In this document: in pieces, positions 2,972 through 55,006 of the stretch | How the letters are laid out: every line of letters starts with the position of its first letter | Position numbering within the stretch: position 1 is the first letter of the stretch | Assembly: GCA_947591785.1 (NCBI GenBank) | Contig: CANQDK010000004.1 | Location: 12,137-76,136, forward strand | Length of the DNA stretch: 64,000 nucleotides | Direction of reading: 5' to 3' | Origin: an uncultured Clostridia bacterium | Lineage (GTDB): Bacteria > Bacillota > Clostridia > Christensenellales > UBA1242 | Made by a program: the position numbers and the translations under genes | Notes under the pieces: generated by a model | What the model saw: only the letters and a program-made list of their open reading frames with translations | Told to the model about the DNA's origin: nothing | The model's database searches: none

Positions 2972-2999
2972 TTGACAAATTCTTCTTCTATGATAAAAT
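2972..2999 (+). promoter_or_regulatory. Sigma-A-type promoter for sigma-like ORF A
   Basis: TTGACA at 2972-2977, a 16-nt spacer, and TGaTAAAAT (extended -10) ending at 2999. Confidence 0.55.
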
Positions 3000-3090: not shown

Positions 3091-4992
3091 ATGGAAGAGG
3101 AAAAGAAACCAAAAAAGAAGATTGACGAAGAAACCCTGAATGGACTTAAAGAGAGTTATGGTGCTCTTCCAAAGGCTCTTGATGCCGAAAAAAATCGAGA
3201 ATTGCTTGAAAAATATAAAGAAACAGGTGACATTGAAATCCGAAATCAAATTGCGTGCGGCAATCTAAGGTTTGCTGTAAAATATGCATATAAATACTTT
3301 CAAAACGTGGTGTTTAAATGTTATAAAGATCAAGTTGGCGATTTGATACATGACCTCACAATAAGCCTTTTCAAAACGATTGAAAAGTTTGATACTTCAA
3401 AAGAATATACCTTTTTGACTTTTGCCAGCAGTGTTATTCGCAACGATTTGTTGATGAAATTCAGAAAAACAAAATTATTGAAAAACAAAGCAGTGATTGT
3501 TTCTTTTTCTTCGCCAACGCACTCTTATAAAGGTGGCGATGAAATTAGATATGAAGATGTGCTTACTGACGAGAAATTCACAGAAGAAAATTTTGTCACC
3601 AGTGCTGATTTGAAATACATTTTGGAAAAAATCGTTCCGACTCTGCCTGAAAGAGATAGAATACTTTTTACAGAATTTTTTATTGAAGGAAAGTCACGGT
3701 CGGAATGTGCAAAAAGTATCGGTTTAGCAAATGGTTCAATGCCTAAGGCTATCACAGAACTTCGTAAAAAAATTGTTCTCGCCTATGAAAATGGCATTGC
3801 AGGCAAGGAAGGCAGCAAGGGTAAAGCCACCCAAACTTATTCGCAAGGGGCGTCCTCGTTTGAAGAAATGTTGACGCAGCAAGCCAAGCGAGATCAAAAC
3901 ATTTTGAGGGATTATTTTGCAGGCAAACTTACATTGAAGGAAGTTGCAGCAAAATACAATATATCAATAGGGAATGTGAATTATATTGTCAGAGAATTTA
4001 AGTATGATTGTGAACTGCGAAATGTTGAAGTTCCAAAAAGAATGAAACCACAATCAAATTGGGCACGACAACAAGAGCAGCGTGCCCTCAGCAAACAAAA
4101 AACGCAGCAGAGAAACGAAGCTGTTGTGAAGGACTATGTAAATGGACTGCTGATGAGAGAAATTGCTGAAAAACATTCACTGACAGTCGGGAATGTGGGC
4201 TATATTGTTTCAAAGTGGAAGGCAGAACAGAAAAATGAAGGCAAAGAAGCACTTCTGACATCGAAAGTAACACTTGGGAAGAAAGAGCGAAACAAAAATA
4301 TTTTTGCGGACTATATGGCAGGTGAAATGACAACAGATGAGATTGCTGAGAAATATTCCATTTCAAAGGCACTTGTCAGGTATGTTGTCGCAAAGACAAA
4401 GGCTGAACTTACCCAGCGTGGCGAGAATGTTCCACGAAAAAAACGCGTTCAAAAGCTGAAAAATCCGGTTGTTTTGAAGCAGGCCAACCAAATTGAAGCC
4501 GCGATTTCTCTTGACGATGTTCTTGCACTGCTCACGGACAAAAGGAGAAAAATTTTTGAGAGTTATCAAAATGCTGATGGCACAGTGAAAGATGTCGCCA
4601 AAGGGCTTGGAATTTCGCAAGCTTATGTTCTCGATGTTGTCACAGAAGTGAAGAGAAAATGCAAAGAAAAAGGCATTGAAATGCCAAAAATGTCAAGACA
4701 AATTGTCAAAATCGCGGTGCTTAAAGGCTTTGAAGATGGAACTTTGACTTTTGAACAGGTTGACAAGTTTATGGGCAAACTGACTGAAAGTCAGAGACAG
4801 GCACTTTATGATTGGAAAGAGCAAAAAACACAAGAAAGAAAGCAGGAGCAATGTGCGAAAAAAACATCAGAGCCAGACCCTGAAAAAGATGTGACAGATT
4901 CTGACAGGAAAATCAACAAAGCCAAACAAAATGGTGACAAAGATGGGAAAACCGCCGAAAGTGATGAAAATGGTGGAAAAAACTGCGTCTAA
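3091..4992 (+). CDS. Sigma-70-like protein (regions 2 and 4) with a C-terminal array of four HTH-like repeats
   Basis: Region 2-like DLIHDLTISLFKTIEKFDTSKEYTFLTFASSVIRNDL and region 4-like LPERDRILFTEFFIEGKSRSECAKSIGL. Four units follow of the type (D/S)Y-x3-4-(T/L)-x2-E(I/V)A-x-K(Y/H)-x-(I/L)S-x-G/A-x-V-x-Y(I/V)V. The stop codon lies inside the ligA-tail remnant. Confidence 0.8.
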   Translation: MEEEKKPKKKIDEETLNGLKESYGALPKALDAEKNRELLEKYKETGDIEIRNQIACGNLRFAVKYAYKYFQNVVFKCYKDQVGDLIHDLTISLFKTIEKFDTSKEYTFLTFASSVIRNDLLMKFRKTKLLKNKAVIVSFSSPTHSYKGGDEIRYEDVLTDEKFTEENFVTSADLKYILEKIVPTLPERDRILFTEFFIEGKSRSECAKSIGLANGSMPKAITELRKKIVLAYENGIAGKEGSKGKATQTYSQGASSFEEMLTQQAKRDQNILRDYFAGKLTLKEVAAKYNISIGNVNYIVREFKYDCELRNVEVPKRMKPQSNWARQQEQRALSKQKTQQRNEAVVKDYVNGLLMREIAEKHSLTVGNVGYIVSKWKAEQKNEGKEALLTSKVTLGKKERNKNIFADYMAGEMTTDEIAEKYSISKALVRYVVAKTKAELTQRGENVPRKKRVQKLKNPVVLKQANQIEAAISLDDVLALLTDKRRKIFESYQNADGTVKDVAKGLGISQAYVLDVVTEVKRKCKEKGIEMPKMSRQIVKIAVLKGFEDGTLTFEQVDKFMGKLTESQRQALYDWKEQKTQERKQEQCAKKTSEPDPEKDVTDSDRKINKAKQNGDKDGKTAESDENGGKNCV

Positions 4993-5115
4993 TGTTTCAA
5001 AAAATATCTCTAATGTTTTTGCTGGCGAGGAAGCAGGAAGCAAACTTCAAAAAGTGAAAAAAACTTGGCATCAAAATCATTGACGAAAACGAATTTATTG
5101 AAAATGTTAAAATGA
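4966..5115 (+). pseudogene. Decayed duplicate of the ligA 3' end (BRCT tail)
   Basis: Aligns colinearly with 2690-2836. It has two single-A insertions (A6 at 4977-4982 versus A5; A7 at 5057-5063 versus AAAGAA) and many nonsynonymous changes. Confidence 0.85.
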
Positions 5116-5188
5116 TTTTTATGGTTGTTTGTAATGTTATAACCAATAAAAAATTTTTATTTTCTGTCCATAAATTTGAAATTTGATA

Positions 5189-5217
5189 TTGACAAATCCA
5201 ATTATGGTTGTTAGAAT
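5189..5217 (+). promoter_or_regulatory. Sigma-A-type promoter for sigma-like ORF B
   Basis: TTGACA at 5189-5194, a 17-nt spacer, TAGAAT at 5212-5217. A 10-bp inverted repeat (5193-5202 / 5222-5231) brackets it. Confidence 0.6.
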
Positions 5218-5240
5218 AAGGATTGGATTTGTGAGGTATT

Positions 5241-7508
5241 ATGGAAAATTCTGACGAAAAAGTTGGGCTTGATCTTATTTATTGGAATAAGAATTGTAAT
5301 ACAATTCATCTTAATAAAGAAGAAAGATTGGCTCTTTTAAGAGAATACAGAAAGTATGGTGAACCAGCAGTGCGTGAAAAATTGATATACGGTTCTATTG
5401 GGCTTGTTCTTGCTTTTGTTTCACACAATTATGAAGAATTTGGTAGAAAACTAGACAGAATCAATCCAGATTTTGAGGATATTTTTCAAACGGGTTTGGA
5501 AGTTTTATGTGGTGCCGTTGATAGTTTTGATCCTGATGCTTATAATTTTGAATTTTCAACTTATCTTTATCACAGAATTGATTGGAAACTTCGCAGAGAT
5601 GTTTTTCATCATAAAAGCATAATTCCTTTTGTTTCTACTGATGATAAAATAGACGATGATGGGAGATTTTTAGGAGAAATTTTACCAGATTCTAATTTTG
5701 ATATTGAACAATTAATTCAATCTATGGATATGAGTTATCTTAAAGAGAAAGTCATTCCTTTTCTCTCTTCGCAAGAAAAACGCATATTTGAATATTATTT
5801 CTTTGATGAACTTCCATATTCTGAAATTGGGAAAATTTTTGGATTTTCACAAGAAAGAGTTCGTCAACAACTTGACAGTGCAATAAAAAAAGTTACAAAA
5901 ATTTTTCAAGAAGGGCCAACTGAAATAGATAAAATAACTAGGGGCGTTCAGTTAAGGAAATCTGCCATTGAAAGAATTGAAAAAAATCAAAAGCTTTTTG
6001 AAAAATATGGGAGAGCTTTCCTTAAACAACATTTTAGGCCTCTTTTGACTCCAACACAAAAAGATGTTTTTGATAGTTTCTTTTTAAATTATCGTGGGCA
6101 AGAAGTTGCTAGGATGCTTTCCACAGTAAAAGATATTGAGAAAAAACTTGATAAGAAAGGCCCAGAACTTTTAAAGAAAAAAGAAAATGGCGAATTAGCC
6201 GTGAAGAAACCAACTCTAAGGCAACAACAATGTAAAAACAGGATAGAACGCTTGTTGAACCAGTATGGTGGGAGATTGTTCCTGCAAAAGTATTTTGTTC
6301 CTACTCTTGAACCAACCACAAAAAAAGTCTTTGAAAAAGGACTTTTAGAATACGATTTTGATTCTCTTAAGGAAATGGCGAAGCAAACGGGATTGTCACC
6401 AACAAAGTTTAAAGATATTTTGATGGAAAGTGTTGAGCAACTTAAAAATACTGATTTTGAAACTATAGTGAGAGTTGTTGATTTTAAAAATAGTTTTTGG
6501 GGAACAAGAAATATTGATGAAAAGATTGATACTGAACTTATAAGACAAAAATTTGAACTTGTGAAAAAATTTGGTGGAGAAATTGTCCTAAGAAAATATT
6601 TCTGTCCTATGCTCTCAGAAGATGAAAAGAAGGTTTTTGATTGTTTATATTTAAGACAAAATTTCACTTCTTACGAAAATGCTTCAAAAATTCTTGGTAA
6701 AACTGTTGGAGAAATTATTAGCACAGAAAAAGTGGTTTTAAGCAAACTTGAAAACACCAATTTGGAAGAACTTAAAGAAATTGAGAAAAAAGCCAATTTG
6801 TATATTAGTAAAGCATTTTCAACAAGCACTTCGCATGACAAAAATAAAATGAGAAGAAAAATTATATGCAATTATGGTGGAATCCAATTTTTGAGAGAGA
6901 GGTTTATTCCAACAATCTATGCAAAAATTGATAAAGAAATTTTTGAAAAATACATACTTCATGGAGTTCTATCAGATGAATTGAAACATCTTTTCAACAA
7001 TGGATTTGCAAAAAGAACTAATAAAGATGGATATGTTAAAGAGATAAGTGTTTCAGGAAAGATTGGATTCAGAATTAAAAATTATATATTGCCACAACTT
7101 GAAAAGTTTAAAGCCAGTTTTGAAAATTTCGAGCAAACTGTGAAAGAATTCTATATGAAAAAAGGGTTTGAAACAGTTCACTCGGAAGATTTTGAAAAAT
7201 TGACATTTGATGAAATTGCTGAAAAGACTGATGAGAAAAACAAAAAACAGTTTGAAATATTCTCTCCAGAACTTATCCAAAGAGCAGGCGGGGAGAAAGA
7301 AGTGCTTAGAAACTTCAGGCCAACATTGAATTCTGTCACGAAGCAGTTGATTTTATTTAAATCCCTTACAGAAAAAATTAGCGACATTCAAATTGCAAAG
7401 GAACTTGGGCTTACTTCTGATGAATTTAATGAATCAAAGGAAGAAATTGCAGATAAACTTCAAAATTATGTAGAGAAAAAAGAAAAGAAAGAAGGAAAAA
7501 GCAAATAA
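5241..7508 (+). CDS. Sigma-70-like protein with five C-terminal region-4-like repeat modules
   Basis: Region 2-like FEDIFQTGLEVLCGAVDSFDP..FEFSTYLYHRI and region 4-like LSSQEKRIFEYYFFDELPYSEIGKIFGFSQERVRQQL. Five modules follow with the motif (Y/F/A)GG-x3-(F/V)L-x-(K/E/N)-x-F-x-P-x-L-x4-K-x-(V/I)F. Confidence 0.8.
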   Translation: MENSDEKVGLDLIYWNKNCNTIHLNKEERLALLREYRKYGEPAVREKLIYGSIGLVLAFVSHNYEEFGRKLDRINPDFEDIFQTGLEVLCGAVDSFDPDAYNFEFSTYLYHRIDWKLRRDVFHHKSIIPFVSTDDKIDDDGRFLGEILPDSNFDIEQLIQSMDMSYLKEKVIPFLSSQEKRIFEYYFFDELPYSEIGKIFGFSQERVRQQLDSAIKKVTKIFQEGPTEIDKITRGVQLRKSAIERIEKNQKLFEKYGRAFLKQHFRPLLTPTQKDVFDSFFLNYRGQEVARMLSTVKDIEKKLDKKGPELLKKKENGELAVKKPTLRQQQCKNRIERLLNQYGGRLFLQKYFVPTLEPTTKKVFEKGLLEYDFDSLKEMAKQTGLSPTKFKDILMESVEQLKNTDFETIVRVVDFKNSFWGTRNIDEKIDTELIRQKFELVKKFGGEIVLRKYFCPMLSEDEKKVFDCLYLRQNFTSYENASKILGKTVGEIISTEKVVLSKLENTNLEELKEIEKKANLYISKAFSTSTSHDKNKMRRKIICNYGGIQFLRERFIPTIYAKIDKEIFEKYILHGVLSDELKHLFNNGFAKRTNKDGYVKEISVSGKIGFRIKNYILPQLEKFKASFENFEQTVKEFYMKKGFETVHSEDFEKLTFDEIAEKTDEKNKKQFEIFSPELIQRAGGEKEVLRNFRPTLNSVTKQLILFKSLTEKISDIQIAKELGLTSDEFNESKEEIADKLQNYVEKKEKKEGKSK

Positions 7509-7586
7509 AAGTCCAAAATTAATTCAAAATTTCCAATTTAAATTGTAATTTTAAAATTTGTAAAAGTTTTAATAAAGGGACTGGTT

Positions 7587-8402
7587 ATGTCGAGAGGATC
7601 AACAAATGAAAAATATATGTACCTTATTGGAGAATTCCCAGAAGGACTGACAAATCAAGAAAATTCTGAATTGCTTGCTCAATACAAGGTGACAGGCGAC
7701 AGGAAATTGCGTGATAAAATTATCTATGGGAATTTGAGGCTTGCAATTTCTTATTCATGGCAAAAGTTTAATGGACAAATTTATTATCAATATATTAGGA
7801 AAAACGAATATGAAGATTTAATTCAAGATTTGTCGATGATAATCTTAAATGCTGTGGAAAATTTTGATGCATCAAAAAGTTTTGCATTTTCCACTTTTCT
7901 TTGCTCTTGCATTCACAATGATTTTGTAAGAAGAATTAAAAAATCTTCTTGTCTTAAAAATAGTGCAAAGGTTATTTCTTTCTCATCTGTTTTATTTAAA
8001 GATGATAAAGGAAAAGATATAACTCTTGAGCAAGTCATTAAAGATGAAAAGCACACCGAAGATAAGATTCTTGCTTCCGCAGATGTGAAAATTATAATGG
8101 GGAAAATTCTTCCTTTCTTGCCAGAAAGACAACAACTTGTTTTTAAAAAATATTTTATCGAAGGAAAAAAACAAAATGAAATTGCACAAGAAATTGGAGT
8201 TAGTCAAGAGCAAATCAGTCGTGATTTAAGAAAATCAAAAGAGATTGTTGAGTTTATTTACAATAATGGCATAAGGGCTTATGAAATTGCTCAATCGCAA
8301 CCAAAACAAAAAAATATGGAAAAAGATACACAAAAAACTGAAAAAAATAAGCATAGCACTTCAAAAAAAGAAGTCAGCAGAACAAAATGTGCAACAAAAT
8401 GA
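7587..8402 (+). CDS. Sigma-70-like protein, short paralogue of ORF A
   Basis: DLIQDLSMIILNAVENFDASKSFAFSTFLCSCIHNDF and LPERQQLVFKKYFIEGKKQNEIAQEIGVSQEQISRDL. It is colinear with the N-terminal 240 aa of ORF A and has a Lys-rich tail. Confidence 0.8.
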   Translation: MSRGSTNEKYMYLIGEFPEGLTNQENSELLAQYKVTGDRKLRDKIIYGNLRLAISYSWQKFNGQIYYQYIRKNEYEDLIQDLSMIILNAVENFDASKSFAFSTFLCSCIHNDFVRRIKKSSCLKNSAKVISFSSVLFKDDKGKDITLEQVIKDEKHTEDKILASADVKIIMGKILPFLPERQQLVFKKYFIEGKKQNEIAQEIGVSQEQISRDLRKSKEIVEFIYNNGIRAYEIAQSQPKQKNMEKDTQKTEKNKHSTSKKEVSRTKCATK

Positions 8403-8709
8403 GTATTTTTGTTCGATTAGTCTTTTGATAAATTTTTTCGTAGATATTTTGTTTTATAATAATTTAAAATTCCTATCAAATAAAAATATTTGAGTTTTTA
8501 AATGTCGAATTTTCATTTCAAAGTTTTACTTAAATTTTATTTCAAAGTCTATTTCAAATTTTTATGTTCCCTTTCTCTCTATGTTTCCTATGGAATTTTT
8601 TATAAATACCATTTATATGATTAATCTTTGTATTTGCTTTTTATCTATATTTGGTTTTTATTAAAAATTAATATTTAATTAAAAATAATAAGAAAAAGAC
8701 AAAAAATGC

Positions 8710-8738
8710 TTGACAAGAGAAAACAATATGTGTATAAT
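8710..8738 (+). promoter_or_regulatory. Consensus sigma-A promoter
   Basis: TTGACA at 8710-8715, an exact 17-nt spacer, TATAAT at 8733-8738. Confidence 0.7.
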
Positions 8739-8744
8739 ACACTT

Positions 8745-8926
8745 TGTGTTTCGTTGTCGGAAACAGTGCTTAGGTTAAGTAAGCATAAACAAACAACAGG
8801 TGGCGGAAATCCGTTTCACCGATTGGAAAATTCATTTCCAAGAACCATTATGGTTTTGTGTTGTTCGTGTTTCAAATTGTTTAAGCATTTTTTATGGCAC
8901 GAAATCGTTTCGTGCCATTTTTTTTA
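8745..8926 (+). ncRNA. Unclassified structured RNA (independent sRNA or terminator-containing leader of the str operon)
   Basis: Bounded by the consensus promoter and an 11-bp-stem terminator. Internal hairpins lie at 8747-8765, 8799-8820, 8823-8841 and 8843-8855. There is no SD or credible ORF. Confidence 0.45.
8894..8926 (+). terminator. Rho-independent terminator
   Basis: ATGGCACGAAA-tcg-TTTCGTGCCAT followed by a T-run. Confidence 0.8.
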
Positions 8927-9019
8927 GATAGCTTTTGCTCTCAAACAAAAAATTGACAAATCTTTGTTCAAGATTTAAAAATGGAACAAATCGCCATTTG
9001 GCTTAAAAGGAGAAAAAGA

Positions 9020-10234: not shown

Positions 10235-12307
10235 ATGGCTACAAATCTAGAACTTACCAGAAATGTCGGGATTATGGCTCATATTGATGCTGGAAAAACA
10301 ACAACAACTGAACGTATTTTGTTTTATACAGGAAAAAACCATAAGATTGGCGAGGTTCATGATGGCGAAGCAACAATGGACTGGATGGCTCAGGAACAAG
10401 AACGTGGAATCACAATCACTTCTGCTTGCACAACTTGCCATTGGAAAGGCCACAAAATCAACATTATTGACACTCCAGGACACGTTGACTTCACTGTTGA
10501 AGTTGAACGTTCTTTGAAAGTGCTTGATGGTGCGGTTTTGGTGCTTTCTGCTCGTGATAAGGTTCAACCACAAACAGAAACTGTTTGGCGTCAATCAACA
10601 AAATACAAAGTTCCAACAATTATCTATGTCAACAAGATGGACCGTGATGCTGCTGACTTTTTTGGTTGCGTTGATTCAATCCGTGAAAGATTGAAAACAA
10701 ATCCGCTTGCAATTCAAATGCCTATCGGTGAGGCAGAAACATTCAGCGGAATTATTGACCTCATGACAATGAAAGCAGAAATTTATAAAGACGATATTGG
10801 AACTCAAATTGAAATTACTGATATTCCTGAACAATACAAAGCAAAAGCACAAGCTCTTCATGACGAAATGGTTGAAAAAATCGTTGAAACAGATGATGCT
10901 ATGCTTGAGAAGTTCTTTGAAGGCGAAGAAATTTCTATTGACGAATTAAAGAAAACTCTTCGTAAAGCAACAATCTCTCGTGAGATAGTCCCTGTTCTTT
11001 GTGGTTCTTCTTATAAAAACAAGGGTGTTCAAATGCTTCTTGATGCTATGGTTGAATTTTTGCCAAGTCCTCTTGACATTGACCATATTGAAGGAATTAA
11101 CCCAGAAACAGAACAAACTGAAACACGTGCTCCAAGTGAAGATGCACCTTTCGCAGGACTTGCGTTCAAAATTATGACAGACCCATTTGTTGGAAGACTT
11201 GCATTCTTCCGTGTATATTCTGGAAAATTGACTGCAGGCTCTTATGTTTACAACTCAAACAAGGGTGAAAAAGAGCGTGTTGGGCGTCTTATTCGTATGC
11301 ATGCAAATCAAAGAGAAGAAATTAAAGAAGTTGGTGCAGGGGATATTGCCGCAATCGTTGGACTTAAAGACACAATCACAGGTGAAACTCTTTGTGATGA
11401 GAAATATCCTATCGTGCTTGAAAGTATGGATTTCCCAGAACCTGTTATTCGTGTTGCAATTGAACCAAAAACAAAACTTATGCAAGAAAAAATGGTGCTT
11501 GCATTGATTAAACTTGCAGAAGAAGACCCAACTTTCAAAACCTACACAGACCAAGAAACTGGGCAAACAATTATTGCTGGAATGGGCGAACTTCACCTTG
11601 AAATTATTGTTGACAGACTTCTTCGTGAATTTAAAGTTGAAGCAAATGTTGGACAACCACAAGTTGCTTACAAAGAAACAATCCGCAAATCAACTCGTGC
11701 CGAAGGTAAATTTATTCGTCAAAGTGGTGGTAAAGGACAATACGGACATTGTATTATTGAAATGGAACCACTTGCTCCAGGATCTGGATATCAATTTGAA
11801 GATAAGACTGTTGGTGGTTCTATTCCTAAGGAATACATTCAACCAATCAACAACGGAATTCAAGAAGCAAGCAAAACTGGTGTTGTTGCTGGTTACGAAA
11901 CAGTTGACTTTAAAGTTACTGTCGTTGATGGTTCTTTCCACGAAGTTGACTCTTCTGAAATGGCATTTAAGATTGCTGGCTCAATGGCATTCAAAGATGG
12001 TGCTGCAAAAGCAAATCCTGTTCTTCTTGAACCTATTATGAAAGTTCAAGTTGAAGTCCCAGATGACTATCTTGGAACTGTAATGGGCAATCTTACATCT
12101 CGTCGTGGAATTTTGACAGGAAACGAAACTCGTCCAGGCGTTCAAGTTGTCAATGCAGAAGTTCCACTTGGAGAAATGTTTGGATATGCAACCGACCTTC
12201 GTTCTCAAACACAGGGGCGTGGCACTTTCACAATGGAATTCTTGAAATATAATGAAGTTCCAAGAAATATTGCTGAAAATATTGTTGGTGCAAGAAAGAA
12301 AGCTTAA
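10235..12307 (+). CDS. fusA: Elongation factor G
   Basis: [28 protein letters not shown], and full-length EF-G colinearity. Confidence 0.98.
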
Positions 12308-21628: not shown

Positions 21629-23254
21629 ATGAAAAGATTAAAGTCAAAGGCTTTGGTTGTTGCACTTTTTGTTGGAGTTTTGACTGGTTTTGGAATGGAA
21701 TTTTCGGGCTGTTCTCAACAGCAAGAAAAACCACCTATTGTTGACAATGGTGGGAGTCAAACAAATCCAAATGGTGATAAAGAAAATCCGAATCAAATTC
21801 CGGATAAAAATCCGAGTGATGATAAAGAGAACCCAAACAAAAATCCAAATGAAAATCCTGACAAGAATCCAGGCGATAAAACTGACGATAAAGACCCTCC
21901 AATTGTCAATCCACCAGAAGAAACTCCTGCTGAAAAATTAGCAAGAGGAGTCGAAAAATTTGAAAATTTTGTTGAAAGAACAACTTCAGGAAAGAATTTC
22001 ACATATTCTCAAAAAGGTTATGAAAAAGATGTGCTTGCAGAAATTGATGGTGATGAAGTTAAGTTGACAGAAGGGAAAGATGTGACTTATTTTGAAAAGA
22101 CGACTGCAAGTCAAAATTTCTCTTATGTTTGGAATAGTGAAATTGGACTTTGGGAAAAAGATTTCAGCGAAACAAATGCAGACACTTTGATTTCTTCATT
22201 TACAGATTCAATGAAAGAGGTTAGTTGGGGTGTTTATGATGAAAAAAATCAAAAACTTGGTGGAATAAACATCGTAAATGTTAATGGAATTGACCTTGAT
22301 GCTGTGGTGCAGGTTGATATGTCTTCGGAAGACAAACTTCAAGCAACAATTGAGGTTGCAGACAACGAAGTCAAACTTGAAATAGATAAAATTGGAAGCA
22401 CAGAAGTGATCTTGCCAACAAAGGAACAAGTGCGTGACAAAACAGTGCCAAGCGAAAATGTTTATGAAATTGTCGATGGGCAATATCAATGGAACATCAA
22501 ACTGCTTGCCGATATTTTTGACAAGTGGATGAAGGGTGACAATCAATACAAGACGGATTATTACGGTCGAACTTCTAACTTGCATACAAAACAAATTCTT
22601 TATGTTAAACCTGATTTGGAAAACTTTGTTGTGGGAGTTGTTGGCGAAGATCCTCAAACAAAAGAAAATGGATTTGCAGAATTTAAGTTTACTAGCAATA
22701 ATTTTTACTCTGAACTTGGCTCTGGAACATTGAAGACCAAAGAAGATTTTGTAAACTACTTGAACACAATTAAGCCTATTCATTTTGGACCGACTTCTTC
22801 AAGTATAAAAATGGAATATTCCACAGACACTGCAACACCTGAACAGAAAAAAGAATTTGAAGCAATGACAAAAAATATTTTTGATAGGCTTGAAACAATT
22901 GGAGTGCAAGAAGGTAGTATTAATAATCAGGGGCAAAAAACATCAAAATTTGCTAATGCGAAAGTGCTTTTTGGATTTAAAACTCCTAATAGCGGAACGG
23001 GTGTTGGTTCTGATTTAGGCAATAAGCAATCTTGGCATCAGTATTATTTAATAGATTTGAATGGGCATATTGAATTTGTAGACATTATTATTGATTCTAG
23101 TATTGATGGTAAAGGGACTGCAATTGATAAATTAGTCAATAATGATTCAAAGAGATGGAAAGTTTCGGCTTTGAAAGAGAAAGAGTTGGATGCAGGCAAT
23201 AAAAATTTGTTTAACGCATATTGGTATGTAAACACAAAAGATAAGGAAAAATGA
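21629..23254 (+). CDS. Lipoprotein of unknown function
   Basis: Signal peptide with lipobox FSGC, then a Pro/Asn/Asp-rich linker (ENPNQIPDKNPSDDKENPNKNPNENPDKNPGDK). GGAGG serves as the RBS. Confidence 0.7.
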   Translation: MKRLKSKALVVALFVGVLTGFGMEFSGCSQQQEKPPIVDNGGSQTNPNGDKENPNQIPDKNPSDDKENPNKNPNENPDKNPGDKTDDKDPPIVNPPEETPAEKLARGVEKFENFVERTTSGKNFTYSQKGYEKDVLAEIDGDEVKLTEGKDVTYFEKTTASQNFSYVWNSEIGLWEKDFSETNADTLISSFTDSMKEVSWGVYDEKNQKLGGINIVNVNGIDLDAVVQVDMSSEDKLQATIEVADNEVKLEIDKIGSTEVILPTKEQVRDKTVPSENVYEIVDGQYQWNIKLLADIFDKWMKGDNQYKTDYYGRTSNLHTKQILYVKPDLENFVVGVVGEDPQTKENGFAEFKFTSNNFYSELGSGTLKTKEDFVNYLNTIKPIHFGPTSSSIKMEYSTDTATPEQKKEFEAMTKNIFDRLETIGVQEGSINNQGQKTSKFANAKVLFGFKTPNSGTGVGSDLGNKQSWHQYYLIDLNGHIEFVDIIIDSSIDGKGTAIDKLVNNDSKRWKVSALKEKELDAGNKNLFNAYWYVNTKDKEK

Positions 23255-23300: not shown

Positions 23301-25313
23301 GTGAAAAAATTTAAGAGAATTTTGGCTGTCATATTCTGTTGTTTGTTTGTCTTTCTTGTGGGATGTGATGAAATCTTGGAGGACAATGGTGTTTCTGTGA
23401 AAGCATTTGATGGAGTGAAAGTTCTTTCAAGACCAACTGACTATTTTGATAATATTGGCGAAGTTGTTGGTGACAAAGCCTCAGAATTTTATTACAATAT
23501 TTTTTCTGCAAACATTTTGAGAGCTCTATATTTGATTTATGAAAATCCAAATTTAATAGTTTCTGATGATGATCTAAAGTTATTTTTTTCTAATTTGGAT
23601 TCAAAACCTAATGAATATACTTATAGAACAGACGGAAATCGTGTTAATGGAAATGTTGAAACAGAATTTTATTATCTTTTTGACTCTATGAGATATACAA
23701 TAACAAGTGTTTCGACAATAACAGAAGGCGACACAATCAAATCTCAAACATTGACGCTTGCAAAAACCAAGTGGAATTGGACTGTTGACACAGATGAGGT
23801 TGGCTCAATTTTCAAAAATATCTATGACAATGTATTGGGATATATCACAGAATACACTGAAAGTGACGATCTAATCACAGTTGAATTTGGCGAGCGTTTT
23901 ACAGAGGGTTCTTGGGACAAAATATATGAACGAGATATGTTTAGTTCACAAATTCATTCTTTCTCAAATCTTTATTACAGCGAAGAAATTTCGAATGGCG
24001 GAGAGGGTGAAGATAGGGTGGTGCAATATTGGACTTCACCATTTTATAACCAAGATCAAGATGGTCAGCAGATTGACGGACTGAAAAACAACTATCAAGA
24101 TGCTCTTGAATATGCCACATATATGTTTGTGCTTGGTTTTGATTATCAAGGCGATAATGAAACAACTGCTGTTATGCCAAATTTGTTTAATTTTGAAGAA
24201 AGAGATGGAAAATTCTATGTTGCAGGCTGGAATGCAGACGGAACAATAGATTCTGCAAATGCCACAGCAAATGTCACTGTTCAAGATGCTTTGGGTTTTG
24301 CAAAACAACTTTACAAAGTCAATTCAAATATTGTTGGTGTGACGCAAGAAATCCAAGAAAAAGTGAAAAGGTTTATTTTGGACGAAGTTATCGGCGAAAA
24401 TGCTTTTCTTAAAAATGACTCAATTCAAAATGACCCAAACAAGGAAGGAATTTTTTATGTGGACTTTCATGACGGAACAAAACCTAAAAAATTCAACAGA
24501 AATTATAAAAAAATCGTTGAAAACATTATAAATTATGCTTGTGAACAAGCTCCTATTGGTTATGATGAGAGCAGTAGGAAACAAATTACTCTTGGTGACT
24601 CATATATGGCATCGCAAATTCAAGATTTCCAATATAACAGTTTTCTTCTTCATCATGCAGACAAAGATGCTCACGCTTTCAAAAATATTCCAGTGGCAGA
24701 ATATCAGAGCATGATTTTCTTTCCAAAGAAAGCGGACATCAACCAATATGTTGGCACTTTGATTTTGGCGTTTGAATATTTTGAAAACCCGGACAACAAA
24801 ATTATGCTTGACAAACTTGATTTGACTGTTGGACTTCGATATTATGACCACGAAGAACGTGCCTACACCGTTGATGTTCAAACAGAAAAAAGCATTGTGA
24901 AAGGTGACTATGCAACCGTCAGCAAGGAAAACAATCCAGATATCAATTGGCTTATCATTGACAACTCCAAAGACCAAACTGCAGTTGACCTGCCAATGCC
25001 AAAAGACTTAAAGATGAAAACACAGTTTGTAAACAAAGAACCTATCTCCGCAGAATCTGGACCAGTTAGAATTACGGGAACATCTCAAGCTAGAGCATAC
25101 TACAAGCCAAATAATTCCGATTATGGCACTTTTGGCTCGCTTTATGGCGAAGTTGCTGGGCAAGAAGATTCCGCTTATCAATGCTGGGGCATGGAGAATG
25201 ATTGCGACTATTTGGAAGTTTATTTCCTTATCCACAAAACTGCAGGAAATGTCAATACAAACTACAATTTCAAAGTGGGTGTGCAGGTGTTCACTGCTGC
25301 GTTTACAGGTTGA
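23301..25313 (+). CDS. Lipoprotein of unknown function
   Basis: Signal peptide with lipobox LVGC. GTG start. I recognise no domain. Confidence 0.65.
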   Translation: MKKFKRILAVIFCCLFVFLVGCDEILEDNGVSVKAFDGVKVLSRPTDYFDNIGEVVGDKASEFYYNIFSANILRALYLIYENPNLIVSDDDLKLFFSNLDSKPNEYTYRTDGNRVNGNVETEFYYLFDSMRYTITSVSTITEGDTIKSQTLTLAKTKWNWTVDTDEVGSIFKNIYDNVLGYITEYTESDDLITVEFGERFTEGSWDKIYERDMFSSQIHSFSNLYYSEEISNGGEGEDRVVQYWTSPFYNQDQDGQQIDGLKNNYQDALEYATYMFVLGFDYQGDNETTAVMPNLFNFEERDGKFYVAGWNADGTIDSANATANVTVQDALGFAKQLYKVNSNIVGVTQEIQEKVKRFILDEVIGENAFLKNDSIQNDPNKEGIFYVDFHDGTKPKKFNRNYKKIVENIINYACEQAPIGYDESSRKQITLGDSYMASQIQDFQYNSFLLHHADKDAHAFKNIPVAEYQSMIFFPKKADINQYVGTLILAFEYFENPDNKIMLDKLDLTVGLRYYDHEERAYTVDVQTEKSIVKGDYATVSKENNPDINWLIIDNSKDQTAVDLPMPKDLKMKTQFVNKEPISAESGPVRITGTSQARAYYKPNNSDYGTFGSLYGEVAGQEDSAYQCWGMENDCDYLEVYFLIHKTAGNVNTNYNFKVGVQVFTAAFTG

Positions 25314-26638: not shown

Positions 26639-27325
26639 ATGTTATATACCATAATTTATGTTGCAGTTATTGTTGTGCTATGTGTCACTGCTGTGTTATG
26701 TTTCGTTTTCTTAAGCAAACATGATAAAAAAAGAAGCAAAGTGCTGAAAGAGGAAGCAAAAAGACAAGTGGATATGACTCAAGATTCTTCCAAACTAAAT
26801 CCAGCAATAAATGAAATTGTAAAACATTATGATGAAGAAATTGTAGAACAGATTCAACCCACAAAGGACTTGCCAAATGATGGGTTTGAAAACTATCAAT
26901 GGGAAGACACAAAAGGTAAACAAAAACAAAAGGAAAGTGTCTCTCTAAATCCGTTTAATGTTAAGAAAAAAGATAATCAATTCGACAAAAATGATGATGA
27001 AGCTGAATTTGATGATTTTGATGATTATAACGATATAGAAGCAAAATTTAAAGAATATGAAGAATTTTTAAAAAAGAATCTTGAATTTAATGAATCAGAT
27101 GACGAAGCTGAATTTAGTTTAGAAGATGATGAGTTTGACACACCTTATTCAAATGTTAGTAATAACCACGCAGAAAGCAAGCAATCTGTTGATGAAATCT
27201 TAACAAATCTTCCGCCTAAGGCACGAGATGTTATGGTTTCTGATAAAATTTCAGAAAATAATAAAATTTCCATACAAACATCTAAAAACAATGCAAACAG
27301 TAATATTGATGGCCAAGACATATAG
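26639..27325 (+). CDS. Membrane-anchored acidic protein of unknown function
   Basis: N-terminal TM helix. It has a repeated DDEAEF motif. A terminator hairpin GCCAAGAC...GTCTTGGC overlaps the stop. Confidence 0.6.
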   Translation: MLYTIIYVAVIVVLCVTAVLCFVFLSKHDKKRSKVLKEEAKRQVDMTQDSSKLNPAINEIVKHYDEEIVEQIQPTKDLPNDGFENYQWEDTKGKQKQKESVSLNPFNVKKKDNQFDKNDDEAEFDDFDDYNDIEAKFKEYEEFLKKNLEFNESDDEAEFSLEDDEFDTPYSNVSNNHAESKQSVDEILTNLPPKARDVMVSDKISENNKISIQTSKNNANSNIDGQDI

Positions 27326-27388: not shown

Positions 27389-27700
27389 TTGGTGAAAAAA
27401 GCAAGGAGAGAGCATATACATATTTTGGGTGAGAATATGTTTAATTTTCTTAATGAGCTTAAAAAGAATTTAAAAATTCCGCAAGAACTTGACTTAAATG
27501 GATTTAATATTATCAATATTGCTGGAAATTTGCTTTATGTTGAAGGACATCTTGGTTTGGTGACGCTTTCAAAAGAATTAATTTCATTTAAAGTGAAAAA
27601 AAGTGTGATTATTGTTGAGGGGAAAGATATGGTTTTAAATGAACTATCTGACAGCACTCTCAAAATTTGTGGAAAAATTAAAAAGGTGGAACAAATATGA
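27389..27700 (+). CDS. yqfC: Sporulation protein YqfC (YabP family); start uncertain (27389 / 27425 / 27437)
   Basis: Its size and its position immediately upstream of, and overlapping, yqfD support the call. YabP-like core VEGHLGLVTLSKELISFKV...IVEGKDM. Confidence 0.7.
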   Translation: MVKKARREHIHILGENMFNFLNELKKNLKIPQELDLNGFNIINIAGNLLYVEGHLGLVTLSKELISFKVKKSVIIVEGKDMVLNELSDSTLKICGKIKKVEQI

Positions 27701-28824
27701 AATTAAGAAACATAAGCAAATTTCATATTCATGGACTTAATCAAGAAAAATTGCTTAATGAAATGTGTAAAAATTTTACACTTTTTGATATTGAAAGAAT
27801 TTCTAAAAGTGACACTTTTTTTGAGTGTTCGTATTTTGATTATCGAAAGATTGAAAAATTTATCAAATCACATGGTGTTATAATTGAAAGCGTTTCTCAT
27901 GAAGGTTTTGCTCATAAACTTATGAAAATTTTTTCTTCTTATGGACTTGTTTTTGCAATTTTTATTTCTATTATACTTTATTTCTTTCAAAATCAATATG
28001 TTTTACAATATGAAGTTGTTGGTGTGGACAAACTTAGTGAAAAAGAGATTGTCGAATTTGTTAAAGATGAATTTTCTTCAAAAAAAACTGAAATTGAGAC
28101 TTCAAAAATCGAAAATGCGTTGATTAAGAAGTTTTCATGTATAAGTTTTGTTTCCTGTATAATCAAGGGGCAAACTCTTGTTTTAAATATTAAAGAAAAA
28201 TTATTGCCTAGTGAAATGTATGGAACTTTTGCACCTCTTACTGCAAATAAAAGCGGAAAAATAACAAAAATTGAACTTATTTCAGGGACTTTAAAGGTTA
28301 AGGTTGGTGATATTGTGCAAGAAGGAGATGTCCTTGTTGAACCCTTCACTTTAGATGCATCAGGAGAATTGAAAAAAGTTGAGGCACGAGCAGAAATCCT
28401 TGCAGAAGTTTATAATGAAGGTGTTTCTGAGCATTATGAAACCTTTGTTCAGGTTTCTAGAACGGGAGAAAAGCGTGTGCAGAGTGAGGTTATGCTCTTT
28501 GGATTATCCATTTACAATTTCAAACAGGAAATCCCTTTTTCATTGTTTGAGACTGAGTGTGAATATACAAATCTCTCAAAAAACCTATTTATGCCATTCA
28601 AATTAAAGAAAACAGTCTTTTATGAGCTTGTTGAAGAAACTATTGTCAGTGATTTTGAAGAAGTAAAGGACGAATTTGTTAATAAAGCAAAGATTGATGC
28701 TGAGAAAAAATGTGAAAGTCAAAATATTTTAGATGAATTTTACACTTTACGCCATATCGGGGGAGTGACTTTTGTCAATTATTGTATTGTAACAGAAGAA
28801 AAAATATGTGGTGAGAATAAATGA
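27697..28824 (+). CDS. yqfD: Sporulation protein YqfD
   Basis: ATGA overlap with yqfC, a central TM segment and YqfD-like architecture. The synteny yqfC-yqfD-ybeY-era is preserved. Confidence 0.75.
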   Translation: MKLRNISKFHIHGLNQEKLLNEMCKNFTLFDIERISKSDTFFECSYFDYRKIEKFIKSHGVIIESVSHEGFAHKLMKIFSSYGLVFAIFISIILYFFQNQYVLQYEVVGVDKLSEKEIVEFVKDEFSSKKTEIETSKIENALIKKFSCISFVSCIIKGQTLVLNIKEKLLPSEMYGTFAPLTANKSGKITKIELISGTLKVKVGDIVQEGDVLVEPFTLDASGELKKVEARAEILAEVYNEGVSEHYETFVQVSRTGEKRVQSEVMLFGLSIYNFKQEIPFSLFETECEYTNLSKNLFMPFKLKKTVFYELVEETIVSDFEEVKDEFVNKAKIDAEKKCESQNILDEFYTLRHIGGVTFVNYCIVTEEKICGENK

Positions 28825-52710: not shown

Positions 52711-53385
52711 TTATTTAATAAATTCTCTGTAAACTCTTGAATTTTCTGGATGACGCATTTTAACCAATGCTTTTGCTTCAATTTGTCTTATTCTCTCCAG
52801 AGTAAGGTTATTCTCTCTGCCAATTGATGCAAGAGTTTTTGCACCTTTGCCGTCAAGTCCATATCGTAATTTGAGGACATATTGTTCTGTGCCTGTGAGA
52901 GTTTTTATACCTTTCAAAAGTCCAGCACGCAAAGATTTATTATTGATTTCTCTGTCGGCAAGTTCGTCAATTTCTGGGTTGTTTGCTTTGTCGGGAGTAA
53001 CTATATGTGAAAAGTTTAGATCTTGATTGTGCTTTTTGTTATTTTCATGTAACATATTAAAACTTTCTTCAAGATATTTAGCAAGATATCTTTTGTATGT
53101 CAAATATCTCTTTGGAGTTGCATGAGGGGTTTTTAAAAAATCATTCATCAAAAGATAGGTTGTTTGCAAAGCATCTTCAAATGTTTGACTGCTGAGTGAT
53201 TTTTCAATATAAAAATGAGTAACATATTTGAATGCGAGCATAAGGCTTTTTTGCTTAAAAGTTTTATTTTCAGTCCCAAATTGAGTTAAATTTTTGTATT
53301 CATCTTCGCTCATAACTTCTTCATTGTCCAGTTTAAAACCGTAGTTCTTTTTGATTATTTCAAAATATTCCTCTCTTGTTGACAT
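52711..53385 (-). CDS. Divergent short sigma-70 family protein (RpoD-type region 4, barely recognisable region 2)
   Basis: [45 protein letters not shown] is a near-textbook region 4. The N-terminal 150 aa lack the DLxQEGxxGL and aromatic region 2.3 signatures. Confidence 0.65.
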
Positions 53386-53444: not shown

Positions 53445-53448
53445 TATC

Positions 53449-53620
53449 GAAAAATTAAGTAATGTTTTATTTATCAAAAAAATAAATAATATTATTTCTA
53501 TTAAAAATTAAGTAATGGTTTTCCGTTAAAATATTGAGTAGTGGTTTTTATTAAGAATTAAACTAACACTTTTTAATTAAGAATTAAACAAATATTTTTT
53601 AATTAAGAAAATAAATTTTT
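53449..53620. repeat. Two families of degenerate ~25-27-bp tandem repeats in the divergent promoter region
   Basis: AAAAATTAAGTAATGKTTT occurs 3 times (53449, 53501, 53526). TTAAGAATTAAACWAAYAYTTTTTAA occurs 2-3 times (53551, 53577, 53603). Confidence 0.5.
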
Positions 53621-53821
53621 ATTGTTTATAAAAAAGTTATTGCTGATTTAAAATTTTTTTCAAAAGATATGTCCTGACTGGTTATACAAAATGAAGTGTG
53701 ATATGATGAATACTACACCATATATTGAGATTTTATAGTCCTATTTTTTTCTTATAAATAAAATTGTTGGTTTTCCTTTGATTTGAGTATGATTTTGGTG
53801 TATAATGATTTTGTCGAAAAA

Positions 53822-55006
53822 ATGGCTGTGGAGTGTTACGTGAAAAGCAAAATTATTCAATTTAGAAAAAAGAAATTGTTTAAAAATGGGCTTATGCTTA
53901 ATCTTGAAACAGGAGAAAGTCCACTTGTTGACATTTTGCTTGATGGACAAAATATTGTTGACATTAAACCAAGTGGAACATTTGATGAATTTGACACAGA
54001 AGTTGTTGATTTGAAAAGGAATTTTGTTTTACCACATTTTGTTAATGCGTTTTGTGATAGTTCTAAAGCTTTTGAAAATTCTTATAAAAGAGAATTTGTT
54101 GAAGTTGAAAACAGGTTGCTTGGGACAGGACTTTTTAAAGCTAAAACCTATGATTTTCAATCACTTATTGTGCTAAATTTGTTCGCAAAAAATGTGCTTG
54201 CTGGTTCTGGAATCGTTAATGATGTTGCTGGATATGAATTTTATAAAGAAAATTTCATTAAAGCAAGATGTTTGGAAAATATTGATGAGAAAAACGACAA
54301 AGAACTGGATTCTTTTTTAGAGGGAATTCATAAGGATAAACTCAGACCTTTTCTTAATGTTGGGCGAACTCTTGACGAACTTGGCAGTGTCGATAAAATT
54401 TACAACAAACCGCTTTCACAAGTGTTAGAGGACTTTGGCTTTCTGGATTTAAAACCAATTATCGTTGGTGGAAATTGTTTTGAAAAAGACGAACTTGAAC
54501 TTTTGAAACAGTATGACTGCAATTTTGTTTTAACTCCTTTTGAAGATGGAAAGGTTGGAAGAAGAGCAAACAATCTTGTTTCTTTGAGAGGAAAAGAATT
54601 TTTAATTGGTATTGGGAGTGGCTATGCAACAGAAATCGACTTCTTTGCTTATATGCGACAAATATTGATGAACAATCGTTCAATGTTTGAAAATCCAAAT
54701 GTTGTCACAGAAAAAGAAGTTTTGGATATGGCTTTTAATCAAAGTTCACTTGTTTTGAATGTTGACAATCGTATTAAAATTGGGAATCCTGCTTCGTTTA
54801 TCGTTGTTAGAAACTGTTCCTCGCTTTATGACGACATTTTTAAGACTCTTGTCTGGGAAAAAAGTAAGCATGATGTTGTTATGACAGTTTTTTGTGGAGA
54901 AATTATGCAAAAAAATGGTGAAATCCTTATACAAAATTTCCCAGATTGTGATACAATTAAAGAAACAATAAAATTATTTTCAAGGAGAAAAAAAGATGAC
55001 AATTGA
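53822..55006 (+). CDS. Amidohydrolase-fold protein lacking the canonical metal ligands (putative pseudoenzyme)
   Basis: Its layout resembles MtaD/guanine-deaminase enzymes. The HxH position reads NAFCD (54044-54058) and the GTD Asp position reads IGIGSG (54605-54622). A TTGATT-17-TATAAT promoter (53778-53806) lies just upstream of ATG 53822. Confidence 0.6.
   Translation: MAVECYVKSKIIQFRKKKLFKNGLMLNLETGESPLVDILLDGQNIVDIKPSGTFDEFDTEVVDLKRNFVLPHFVNAFCDSSKAFENSYKREFVEVENRLLGTGLFKAKTYDFQSLIVLNLFAKNVLAGSGIVNDVAGYEFYKENFIKARCLENIDEKNDKELDSFLEGIHKDKLRPFLNVGRTLDELGSVDKIYNKPLSQVLEDFGFLDLKPIIVGGNCFEKDELELLKQYDCNFVLTPFEDGKVGRRANNLVSLRGKEFLIGIGSGYATEIDFFAYMRQILMNNRSMFENPNVVTEKEVLDMAFNQSSLVLNVDNRIKIGNPASFIVVRNCSSLYDDIFKTLVWEKSKHDVVMTVFCGEIMQKNGEILIQNFPDCDTIKETIKLFSRRKKDDN

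Follow-up and report, generated by a model that had tools for sequence, protein, structure and literature searches.

Predicted sigma factors with C-terminal arrays of sigma-4-like modules in an uncultured Clostridia bacterium

Sigma factors follow a fixed modular design in the textbook view, built from the sigma-2, sigma-3 and sigma-4 domains. A known departure is SigI, in which a single distinct C-terminal domain replaces the canonical sigma-4 and which is controlled by RsgI anti-sigma factors. SigI occurs in Clostridia and Bacilli, has a non-canonical domain organization and is often present as several paralogues (PMC10575876). Other known C-terminal extensions of sigma factors are SnoaL-like, TPR, Cys-rich, DUF1835 or transmembrane segments (Casas-Pastor et al. 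2021, PMC7826278). Here, we describe three sigma-70-family proteins encoded by consecutive open reading frames (ORFs A, B and C) in a 64-kb stretch of contig CANQDK010000004.1 from an uncultured Clostridia bacterium (GCA_947591785.1), referred to as the window. ORF C is little more than a sigma core, whereas A and B carry long C-terminal arrays of modules that resemble their own sigma-4. We propose, with our confidence evenly divided, that A and B are duplicated-sigma-4 sigma factors whose arrays would add contacts to upstream promoter DNA. An earlier, sequence-only reading of this DNA had given the lengths of A and B correctly but missed the sigma-4-derived modules that fill them, which are their most unusual feature. 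We did not find this architecture described in the literature on YlxM or on sigma factors in which region 4 is repeated or present in additional copies, although our coverage was incomplete and an earlier description is possible.

All three ORFs lie on the forward strand. ORF A (3091-4992, 633 residues) encodes an A-type sigma factor, consisting of a core and an array of short sigma-4-like helix-turn-helix (HTH) units. ORF B (5241-7508, 755 residues) encodes a B-type giant sigma factor, and ORF C (7587-8402, 271 residues) encodes a core-only sigma factor with a lysine-rich tail. The sequence-only reading had placed three ORFs of these lengths between ligA and the str operon, exactly where we find them; its quoted peptides FASSVIRN (A), YLYHRIDW (B) and FLCSCIHN (C) were also located, along with both of the long stretches over which it held A and C to be colinear.

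The assignment of A, B and C to the sigma-70 family is secure. The NCBIfam superfamily model TIGR02937 scored 125.6, 97.4 and 78.2 bits against A, B and C, respectively (cut-off 42.9), with the match in B spanning residues 73-220, in agreement with the earlier proposal of a region 2 plus region 4 core in all three. The sequence-only reading had also suggested searching with profiles of the individual regions. Pfam Sigma70_r4 passed its threshold of 24.1 bits in every protein (A, 61.4; B, 54.3 at residues 175-218; C, 32.5), while Sigma70_r2 exceeded its cut-off of 24 bits in A (35.5) and C (39.8) but not in B. Sigma-2 of B was instead assigned from its family: among the 43 B-type relatives, Sigma70_r2 was matched in 31 and Sigma70_r4 in 39, and a profile of these 43 members aligned with both sigma-2 and sigma-4 of the SigF structure 1l0o_C (E = 6e-31), giving a conditional E of 1.5e-27 for SigF sigma-2. 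The family consensus retains the stretch EDLlQeGvlaLmkaiekFd and a region 3.2-like SLDe motif. A Foldseek search with the AlphaFold2 model of A returned sigma32, sigmaS and SigA. Each core starts with a helix resembling region 1.2, followed by sigma-2, an acidic linker similar to region 3.2 and then sigma-4. A folded sigma-3 domain is absent, and approximately 35-40 residues of SigF sigma-3, located between sigma-2 and sigma-4, have no counterpart in these proteins.

Clear membership of a well-characterized sigma subgroup would have contradicted the sequence-only reading, and no NCBIfam model of such a subgroup reached its cut-off for A, B or C; all scores fell far short. The best subgroup models for A were SigE (74.2 bits, cut-off 339) and SigK (about 65.2-75 bits, cut-offs 252-298.65), against equivalog cut-offs that run from 252 to 349. 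For C, the best model was SigG (71.5 bits against 457), followed by SigK (60.9) and SigE (57.3). TIGR02980 (SigB/F/G) gave 54.5, 40.9 and 62 bits against 234, and TIGR02479 (FliA/WhiG) gave 38.8-44.7 bits against 189.6. The resemblance to the group 3 factors SigE and SigK extends to the layout and length of the core, an N-terminal ALP..L..EE motif and the region 2.3/2.4 signature T[YF]A..[CV]I.N..LM. In contrast to SigE and SigK, the proteins described here have no hydrophobic pro-sequence by eye (their N-termini are charged), lack an adjacent spoIIGA or spoIVFB gene and, in the case of A and B, carry C-terminal arrays. A genome scan also returned five loci (L011-L015) that proved to encode ordinary sporulation sigmas of the SigG/SigF type, picked up through a short shared motif, and these were set aside.

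Extracytoplasmic function (ECF, group 4) sigma factors consist of sigma-2 and sigma-4 without region 1.2 and are usually co-transcribed with an anti-sigma factor. Like the ECF groups ECF41, ECF42, ECF238 and ECF264, among others, A and B fuse a sigma-2/sigma-4 core to a long C-terminal extension and have no anti-sigma gene next to them. Unlike the catalogued ECF proteins, however, their extensions are HTH/sigma-4 arrays rather than SnoaL-like or TPR domains, and their cores include a helix resembling region 1.2 and obtain their best scores with group 3 models; only 2 of the 43 B-type members match PF07638 (Sigma70_ECF). In contrast to SigI, the canonical sigma-4 is retained and then repeated.

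The sequence-only reading had stressed that all three proteins lack the conserved aromatic residues of region 2.3 and might therefore melt promoters unusually. The tryptophans are indeed absent, but the aromatic residue equivalent to Y430 is retained (F, Y and F in A, B and C). Moreover, the functional sigma factors SigK, SigF, SigB and WhiG also lack the WW pair. In alignments derived from Protein Data Bank structures, region 2.3 reads LATYAARCIENEILMHLR in SigK, FSTYAVPMIIGEIQRF in SigF, FEAFLVPTVIGEIKRY in SigB and FETYAITRIRGAMIDEL in WhiG, while that of ORF A, FLTFASSVIRNDLLMKFR, is a near position-for-position match to SigK. On these alignments, the WW pair is confined to primary sigmas. 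Since working alternative sigma factors do without it, region 2.3 of A, B and C signals nothing unusual, and the suggestion of atypical melting is not upheld.

The sigma core of ORF B (5310-5909, forward strand) comprises sigma-2 (residues 24-125), an acidic linker and sigma-4 (residues 156-223), and is followed by five tandem units (5967-7505, forward strand; residues 243-328, 329-430, 431-531, 532-668 and 669-755). Each unit spans approximately 85-135 residues and contains the motif YGG..FL.KYF.P.L....K.VF followed by an HTH. A profile of the B units aligned with the sigma-4 of the family at 97% hhalign probability (E = 1.1e-10, 55 columns), and a hidden Markov model (HMM) built from the B units alone also matched sigma-4 of A, B, C and A-type relatives. 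The AlphaFold2 model of B was poor in the core, with a predicted local distance difference test score (pLDDT) of about 30, and only its repeat units were used; these were modeled as helical bundles (pLDDT 70-88) that Foldseek matched to the YlxM/UPF0122 structures 1xsv and 1s7o (probability 0.99-1.0, target TM-score 0.54-0.62). The B unit thus belongs to the same fold class as YlxM/UPF0122 (PF04297), a sigma-4-like HTH placed after an extra helix. YlxM, in contrast, is a stand-alone protein of about 110 residues, neither fused nor repeated, whose gene lies beside ffh, and the YlxM equivalog model NF045758 scored below its cut-off of 80 for both A (53.6 bits) and B (19.2 bits).

The order of the B units is conserved. 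When they were compared with those of seven other family members, the unit of the same ordinal position was the best match in six of the seven. In P0030, the first unit was undetected and the correspondence was shifted by one; in P0029, the best match of the first unit (R1) was the second (R2). Best scores across proteins ranged from 103 to 284 (from 92 to 284 with the R1 exception included), compared with 69-95 between units within B. From this pattern, the array is judged to be old, with each unit individually maintained. Across 149 B-type units, conservation is highest at the YGG turn and in the helix FL.KYF.P.L, the counterpart of the first helix of sigma-4.

ORF A is built from shorter modules. 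Its sigma-2 domain (3181-3489, forward strand; residues 31-133), with a region 1.2-like helix and regions 2.1-2.4, was modeled with pLDDT values of 75-86 and aligns with residues 26-126 of SigK. An acidic linker follows (3490-3606, forward strand; residues 134-172, net charge −5), which by eye resembles region 3.2, its SFSSP...GGDEI.YEDVLTDE recalling SLETPIG..D..LGDFIED of SigA; residues 126-172 are disordered in the model (pLDDT below 50). Sigma-4 occupies 3607-3798 on the forward strand (residues 173-236), with Pfam Sigma70_r4_2 matching best at residues 178-227 and modeled helices at residues 174-234. The C-terminal array (3859-4866, forward strand) comprises four or five units, with HTHs at residues 257-310, 340-382, 399-442 and 473-530 and a helical domain at residues 535-592. 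These were modeled as separate helical modules (pLDDT 70-87, compared with a mean of 66 for the whole protein) joined by basic linkers (isoelectric point about 11), and the net charge of A is +23.

The A-type units are minimal three-helix HTHs, similar in this respect to Mor/C-type activators and the transposase-type HTH_23/HTH_28 domains. Taken singly, the 17 units from A and its relatives matched Sigma70_r4 in 6 cases, HTH_28 in 7 and Mor in 5, and A as a whole scored 36.4 bits against PF04297 (cut-off 22.7). Mor/C and HTH_23/HTH_28 proteins have single DNA-binding domains, however, whereas A-type proteins bear two to seven tandem copies on a sigma factor. A profile of the 17 units aligned best with the family's own sigma-4 (hhalign 95.6%, E = 1.2e-8), from the ERER motif onward. 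Given the hhalign matches to sigma-4 for both the B and the A units, we regard both extensions as arrays of sigma-4-derived modules.

Purifying selection acts on the extension of A as strongly as on its core. Compared with the 77%-identical orthologue P0002 (L006), the ratio of nonsynonymous to synonymous substitution rates (dN/dS) was 0.31 in the extension, against 0.32 in the core; sigma-2 is the most constrained part (0.21), and two linkers reach 0.76-0.90. P0002 carries three units more than A, and shorter A-type relatives have two. As unit counts vary among relatives, A-type arrays evidently gain and lose whole units.

ORF C provides the bare counterpart, with sigma-2 at residues 21-125, sigma-4 at residues 164-226, the lysine-rich tail and no array. 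It is 38% identical to A over 227 residues (E = 1.5e-53) and 27% identical to B over 214 residues (E = 1e-20), which supports the earlier description of the three as paralogues, although a direct BLASTP comparison of the A and B cores detected no similarity. In a neighbor-joining tree of the cores, C branches as the sister of the A-type cores as a whole, and the B-types group in a clade of their own, with the two clades jointly closer to a SigE/K-like protein than to SigF/G; this tree, built without bootstrapping from an alignment guided by the family HMM, is indicative only.

To account for these features, we envisage that A and B duplicated their own sigma-4 into C-terminal arrays, with C representing the bare core. 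The cores would bind RNA polymerase and open promoters like other alternative sigma factors. Because the units are attached to the C-terminus of sigma-4, they would be located upstream of the −35 element, where the extra HTH modules could contact promoter DNA, either sequence-specifically or by wrapping it, and the arrays might serve the sigma factor as an activator, or a reader of UP elements, of its own. We favor this role in view of the sigma-4-type HTH units expected upstream of the −35 element, the purifying selection on the array and the strongly basic character of A; the matches of A units to the DNA-binding families Sigma70_r4, HTH_28 and Mor were likewise counted toward plausible DNA binding. 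Multiplying sigma-4 itself two- to eightfold would be a novel route to promoter specificity, and if the arrays read DNA, long composite promoters could be recognized without separate activators.

Several observations weigh against this proposal. The recognition-helix positions of the B units are their least conserved, the top motif corresponding to the first helix of sigma-4 rather than to the helix that reads DNA, and the HTH halves of these units are neutral to acidic (isoelectric points 4.7-6.8). No convincing upstream DNA repeat array is tied to the genes for A, B or C. Within the cores, sigma-2 of B fails Pfam Sigma70_r2 taken alone (17.6 bits) and is badly modeled by AlphaFold2, and the core-binding residues of region 2.2 are changed in A (DLIHDLTISL) and C (DLIQDLSMIIL). 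In addition, the fused C-terminal extensions of ECF sigma factors are regulatory, not DNA-binding (PMC7826278).

The main rival, which we consider rather doubtful in its own right, is that the arrays gate the sigma factor in cis, either by folding onto sigma-2/sigma-4 or by competing for the β-flap or a partner, and so dispense with a separate anti-sigma factor. No anti-sigma-like gene adjoins A, B or C, and an ECF C-terminal extension typically accompanies a missing anti-sigma factor (PMC7826278). The conservation pattern of the B units also speaks for such gating: the first helix of sigma-4 and the hydrophobic core are kept, and the recognition helices vary and lack basic character. However, five units that are each conserved, and as many as eight in relatives, far exceed what autoinhibition would need, and AlphaFold2 shows no confident packing of units against the core (predicted TM-score 0.24-0.26). 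The basic linkers and high positive charge of A, moreover, resemble those of a nucleic-acid binder. The computed evidence favors neither upstream DNA contacts nor cis regulation decisively; should the arrays not read DNA, they would represent a new kind of built-in sigma regulation.

The weak sigma-2 match of B and the altered region 2.2 of A and C also bear on whether these proteins remain initiation factors at all. They might instead be sigma-derived multi-HTH regulators or nucleoid-associated proteins with a sigma-2 that no longer binds RNA polymerase; the existence of array-only relatives in which a full sigma core is not detectable, such as P0055, P0066 and P0084, speaks for this reading. 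We regard this as unlikely, given that sigma-2 is the most constrained part of A, that the B-family consensus keeps the region 2 and SLDe motifs and matches sigma-2 of SigF, and that C consists of a sigma core alone. Returning to the preferred reading of arrays that contact upstream DNA, a bolder version, which we advance only tentatively, holds that the B-type proteins, with the A-type in parallel, constitute an unrecognized sigma-70 class whose positionally orthologous sigma-4 units would read serial upstream elements or bridge partners, thereby merging sigma and activator functions in one polypeptide.

The extent of the B family came to light solely when the B-unit profile was run exhaustively, with HMMER, against 1.84 billion representative proteins. 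At E ≤ 1e-3 this search matched 88 proteins, of which 55 remained at E ≤ 1e-10 and 31 at E ≤ 1e-30; the majority are 500-1017 residues long and show 4-8 matched stretches. By local HMMs, a complete N-terminal sigma core with 2-8 units behind it is present in approximately 42 of the 88, and the remainder are fragments or array-only proteins. Word-indexed homologue searches, by comparison, returned eight relatives for A, two for B and, for C, only C itself and weak matches to primary sigmas. None of the 88 relatives is named in any source. Their sources are metagenome-assembled genomes at NCBI and assemblies in ENA and Logan, several labeled as animal gut, and those with an organism label are assigned to 'uncultured Clostridia bacterium' from rabbit samples (isolates 'Lapin-'). 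To judge by the accession series, two more probably come from a project labeled 'Eubacteriales bacterium'. Scans of JGI metagenomes with the B alignment and the unit-2 alignment gave no matches. An unnamed family of proteins reaching about 1000 residues, known from metagenome data alone and with unit copies individually conserved over deep divergence, makes a concrete annotation target.

Tandem units resembling sigma-4 or YlxM also occur in more distant proteins that depart from the A and B architectures. P0062 (987 residues, L020) has an N-terminal Sigma70_r2 part, a faint Sigma70_r4 and then approximately nine near-identical Sigma70_r4-like repeats. P0084 (998 residues) and P0055 (663 residues) are array-only proteins with 7-10 and 5-7 units, respectively, and P0008 (630 residues) joins a SigE/K-like core to two further Sigma70_r4-like segments. 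Judging from these sequences, sigma-4 multiplication seems recurrent in uncultured bacteria. Among the B-type members, P0023 (residues 1-60) and P0040 (residues 30-100) have a strongly acidic N-terminal extension (e.g., DEFESEYLGEEELEEDVFEDFDPHEFDYLNFDDEDEELDD) that recalls region 1.1 of primary sigmas and is lacking in B of the window.

The window begins with the end of pcrA (34-846) and ligA (818-2836), continues with A, B and C on one strand and then enters the str operon (rpsL, rpsG, fusA and tuf). The 12-kb locus is reproduced in three independent ENA metagenome assemblies that are identical or differ by 1 base in 12,000, and gene callers annotated A, B and C in these matching assemblies. 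Rabbit-gut samples containing this genome include ERZ27060145 and ERZ27249446. A 2.3-kb Logan contig matches 2748-5048, covering the 3′ end of ligA, gene A and the start of a ligA remnant. The sequence-only reading had noted that core genes normally sit at this place in related Firmicutes. That the block is an oddity there is not borne out: a B-type gene downstream of pcrA-ligA is conserved in the lineage, lying directly 3′ of the pair in five of the eight genomes examined: that of the window, GCA_944381135 (L016), GCA_965335205 (L018), GCA_054291635 (L030) and GCA_052840345 (L032). A further ENA contig, L017, carries the same protein (P0108) as L016. In the window, GCA_944381135, GCA_965335205 and GCA_054291635, the last three being the fetched contigs that reach beyond the slot, rpsL comes next. 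The B proteins at this shared slot are merely 23-35% identical to B of the window. Given this conserved position, we take B to be the ancestral, vertically inherited resident. Other B-type genes occur upstream of rplU-rpmA (L019) and in two further contexts (L007 and L031), and A-type genes of other genomes are located elsewhere, for example behind an ABC transporter (L005 and L009) and, in L005, 2.9 kb 5′ of the S10 operon. In the bolder reading given above, the conserved location next to pcrA-ligA and to ribosomal-protein operons (str, S10 or L21) might point to a contribution to growth-related gene expression in one clade of uncultured gut Clostridia.

The junction between A and B retains a trace of recombination. 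A decayed duplicate of the 3′ end of ligA lies at 4962-5116 on the forward strand and corresponds to 2686-2836. By blastn, 4962-5106 is 89.7% identical to ligA 2686-2827 over 145 nt with three single-base indels, and in pairwise alignments the similarity continues as far as the ligA stop, near 5116. The final codons and stop of A (ENGGKNCV*) come from this remnant, where ligA itself reads ENGGKTASSV. On this sequence similarity, the remnant is a recombination scar marking where A joined in front of B. The ancestral order would have been pcrA-ligA-B, into which a segment with ligA-A, arranged as in L006, could have recombined, its right junction falling at a short GAAAATGGyGGAAAAA match within the resident ligA. 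This history is inferred from the scar and agrees with the GC content, which is 38-41% in A and 28-31% in B and C, although the direction of the event is open to doubt.

The same GC difference and scar, together with matches of PHROG sigma families to the cores, could be taken to mean that the block is a sigma cassette recently acquired from a mobile element or prophage. We find this highly improbable. The flanks are pcrA-ligA and the str operon, and the B-type position is kept across genomes in which the B proteins have diverged to the identities given above. IMG/VR was scanned twice by pattern seeding, in each case with a pair of short peptide motifs from the core region as seeds rather than the repeat units; these scans returned no B relative and, for A, only generic sigmas with 28-34% identity, and on this result a phage origin was rejected. 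PADLOC models gave nothing beyond weak single-stretch matches (best E = 1.6e-6), and A, B and C therefore belong to no known defense system.

Promoter-like sites agree with the earlier claim that A and B have consensus promoters of their own and that C has none. The site for A (2972-2999, forward strand; TTGACA-16-TAAAAT) has a TG before the −10 element, matches at 11 of 12 positions and lies approximately 90 nt 5′ of the start codon. That for B (5189-5217, forward strand; TTGACA-17-TAGAAT) also has a TG before the −10 element. For C, the best match is weak (9 of 12, at 7530-7557). Because of this weak match, the gap of only 78 nt between B and C and the lack of a terminator-like site between them, C is probably co-transcribed with B; none was detected between A and B either. 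Since A, B and a neighboring RNA gene have near-perfect TTGACA/TATAAT promoters, a canonical housekeeping sigma factor is probably encoded elsewhere; a fourth sigma-like ORF is absent from the window.

A perfect 11-nt inverted repeat, ACAAATCCAAT-N19-ATTGGATTTGT (5192-5202 and 5222-5232), flanks the −10 element of the B promoter and is operator-like in appearance. It is unconserved upstream of the B-type genes in L007, L016, L018 and L019. In the AT-rich spacer 3′ of C (8508-8562), ATTTCAAAGTTT is repeated approximately four times with a 12/24-nt period. A second array, of four to six direct repeats of approximately 26-27 nt (ATTAAGTAATGgTTT / TTAATTAAGAATTAAAC), is found at 53445-53623 in the divergent intergenic region between ORFs at 52711-53385 (reverse strand) and 53783-55006 (forward strand), and is a possible multi-site binding array for a regulator. 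Both AT-rich arrays were considered as binding sites of the sigma proteins, and this idea was dropped, as nothing connects them.

Between C and rpsL, the forward strand at 8710-8928 encodes a candidate structured RNA of approximately 180 nt. Its start follows a TTGACA-17-TATAAT promoter without mismatches (8710-8738), and its 3′ end is formed by a strong terminator-like hairpin and T-run (8894-8918). The predicted fold has a z-score of −5.2, and blocks such as GTGTTTCGTTGTCGGAAAC and AGCATAAACAAACAACAGGTGG do not vary among four genomes; the hairpin loops carry variable insertions, and the terminator stem shows compensatory changes. Counterparts occur in L006 (12714-12945), L018 (about 8030-8320) and L016 (about 10780-11130); the element is absent from L030 and matches no Rfam family. 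It could be a leader or attenuator of the rpsL operon or a small RNA. Elsewhere in the window, no Pfam family matches the ORFs at 21629-23254, 23301-25313 or 26639-27325 with E ≤ 1e-5. A homologue of the stage IV sporulation protein YqfD is encoded at 27697-28824 (187.8 bits against Pfam), which suggests that the organism is, or was, an endospore former.

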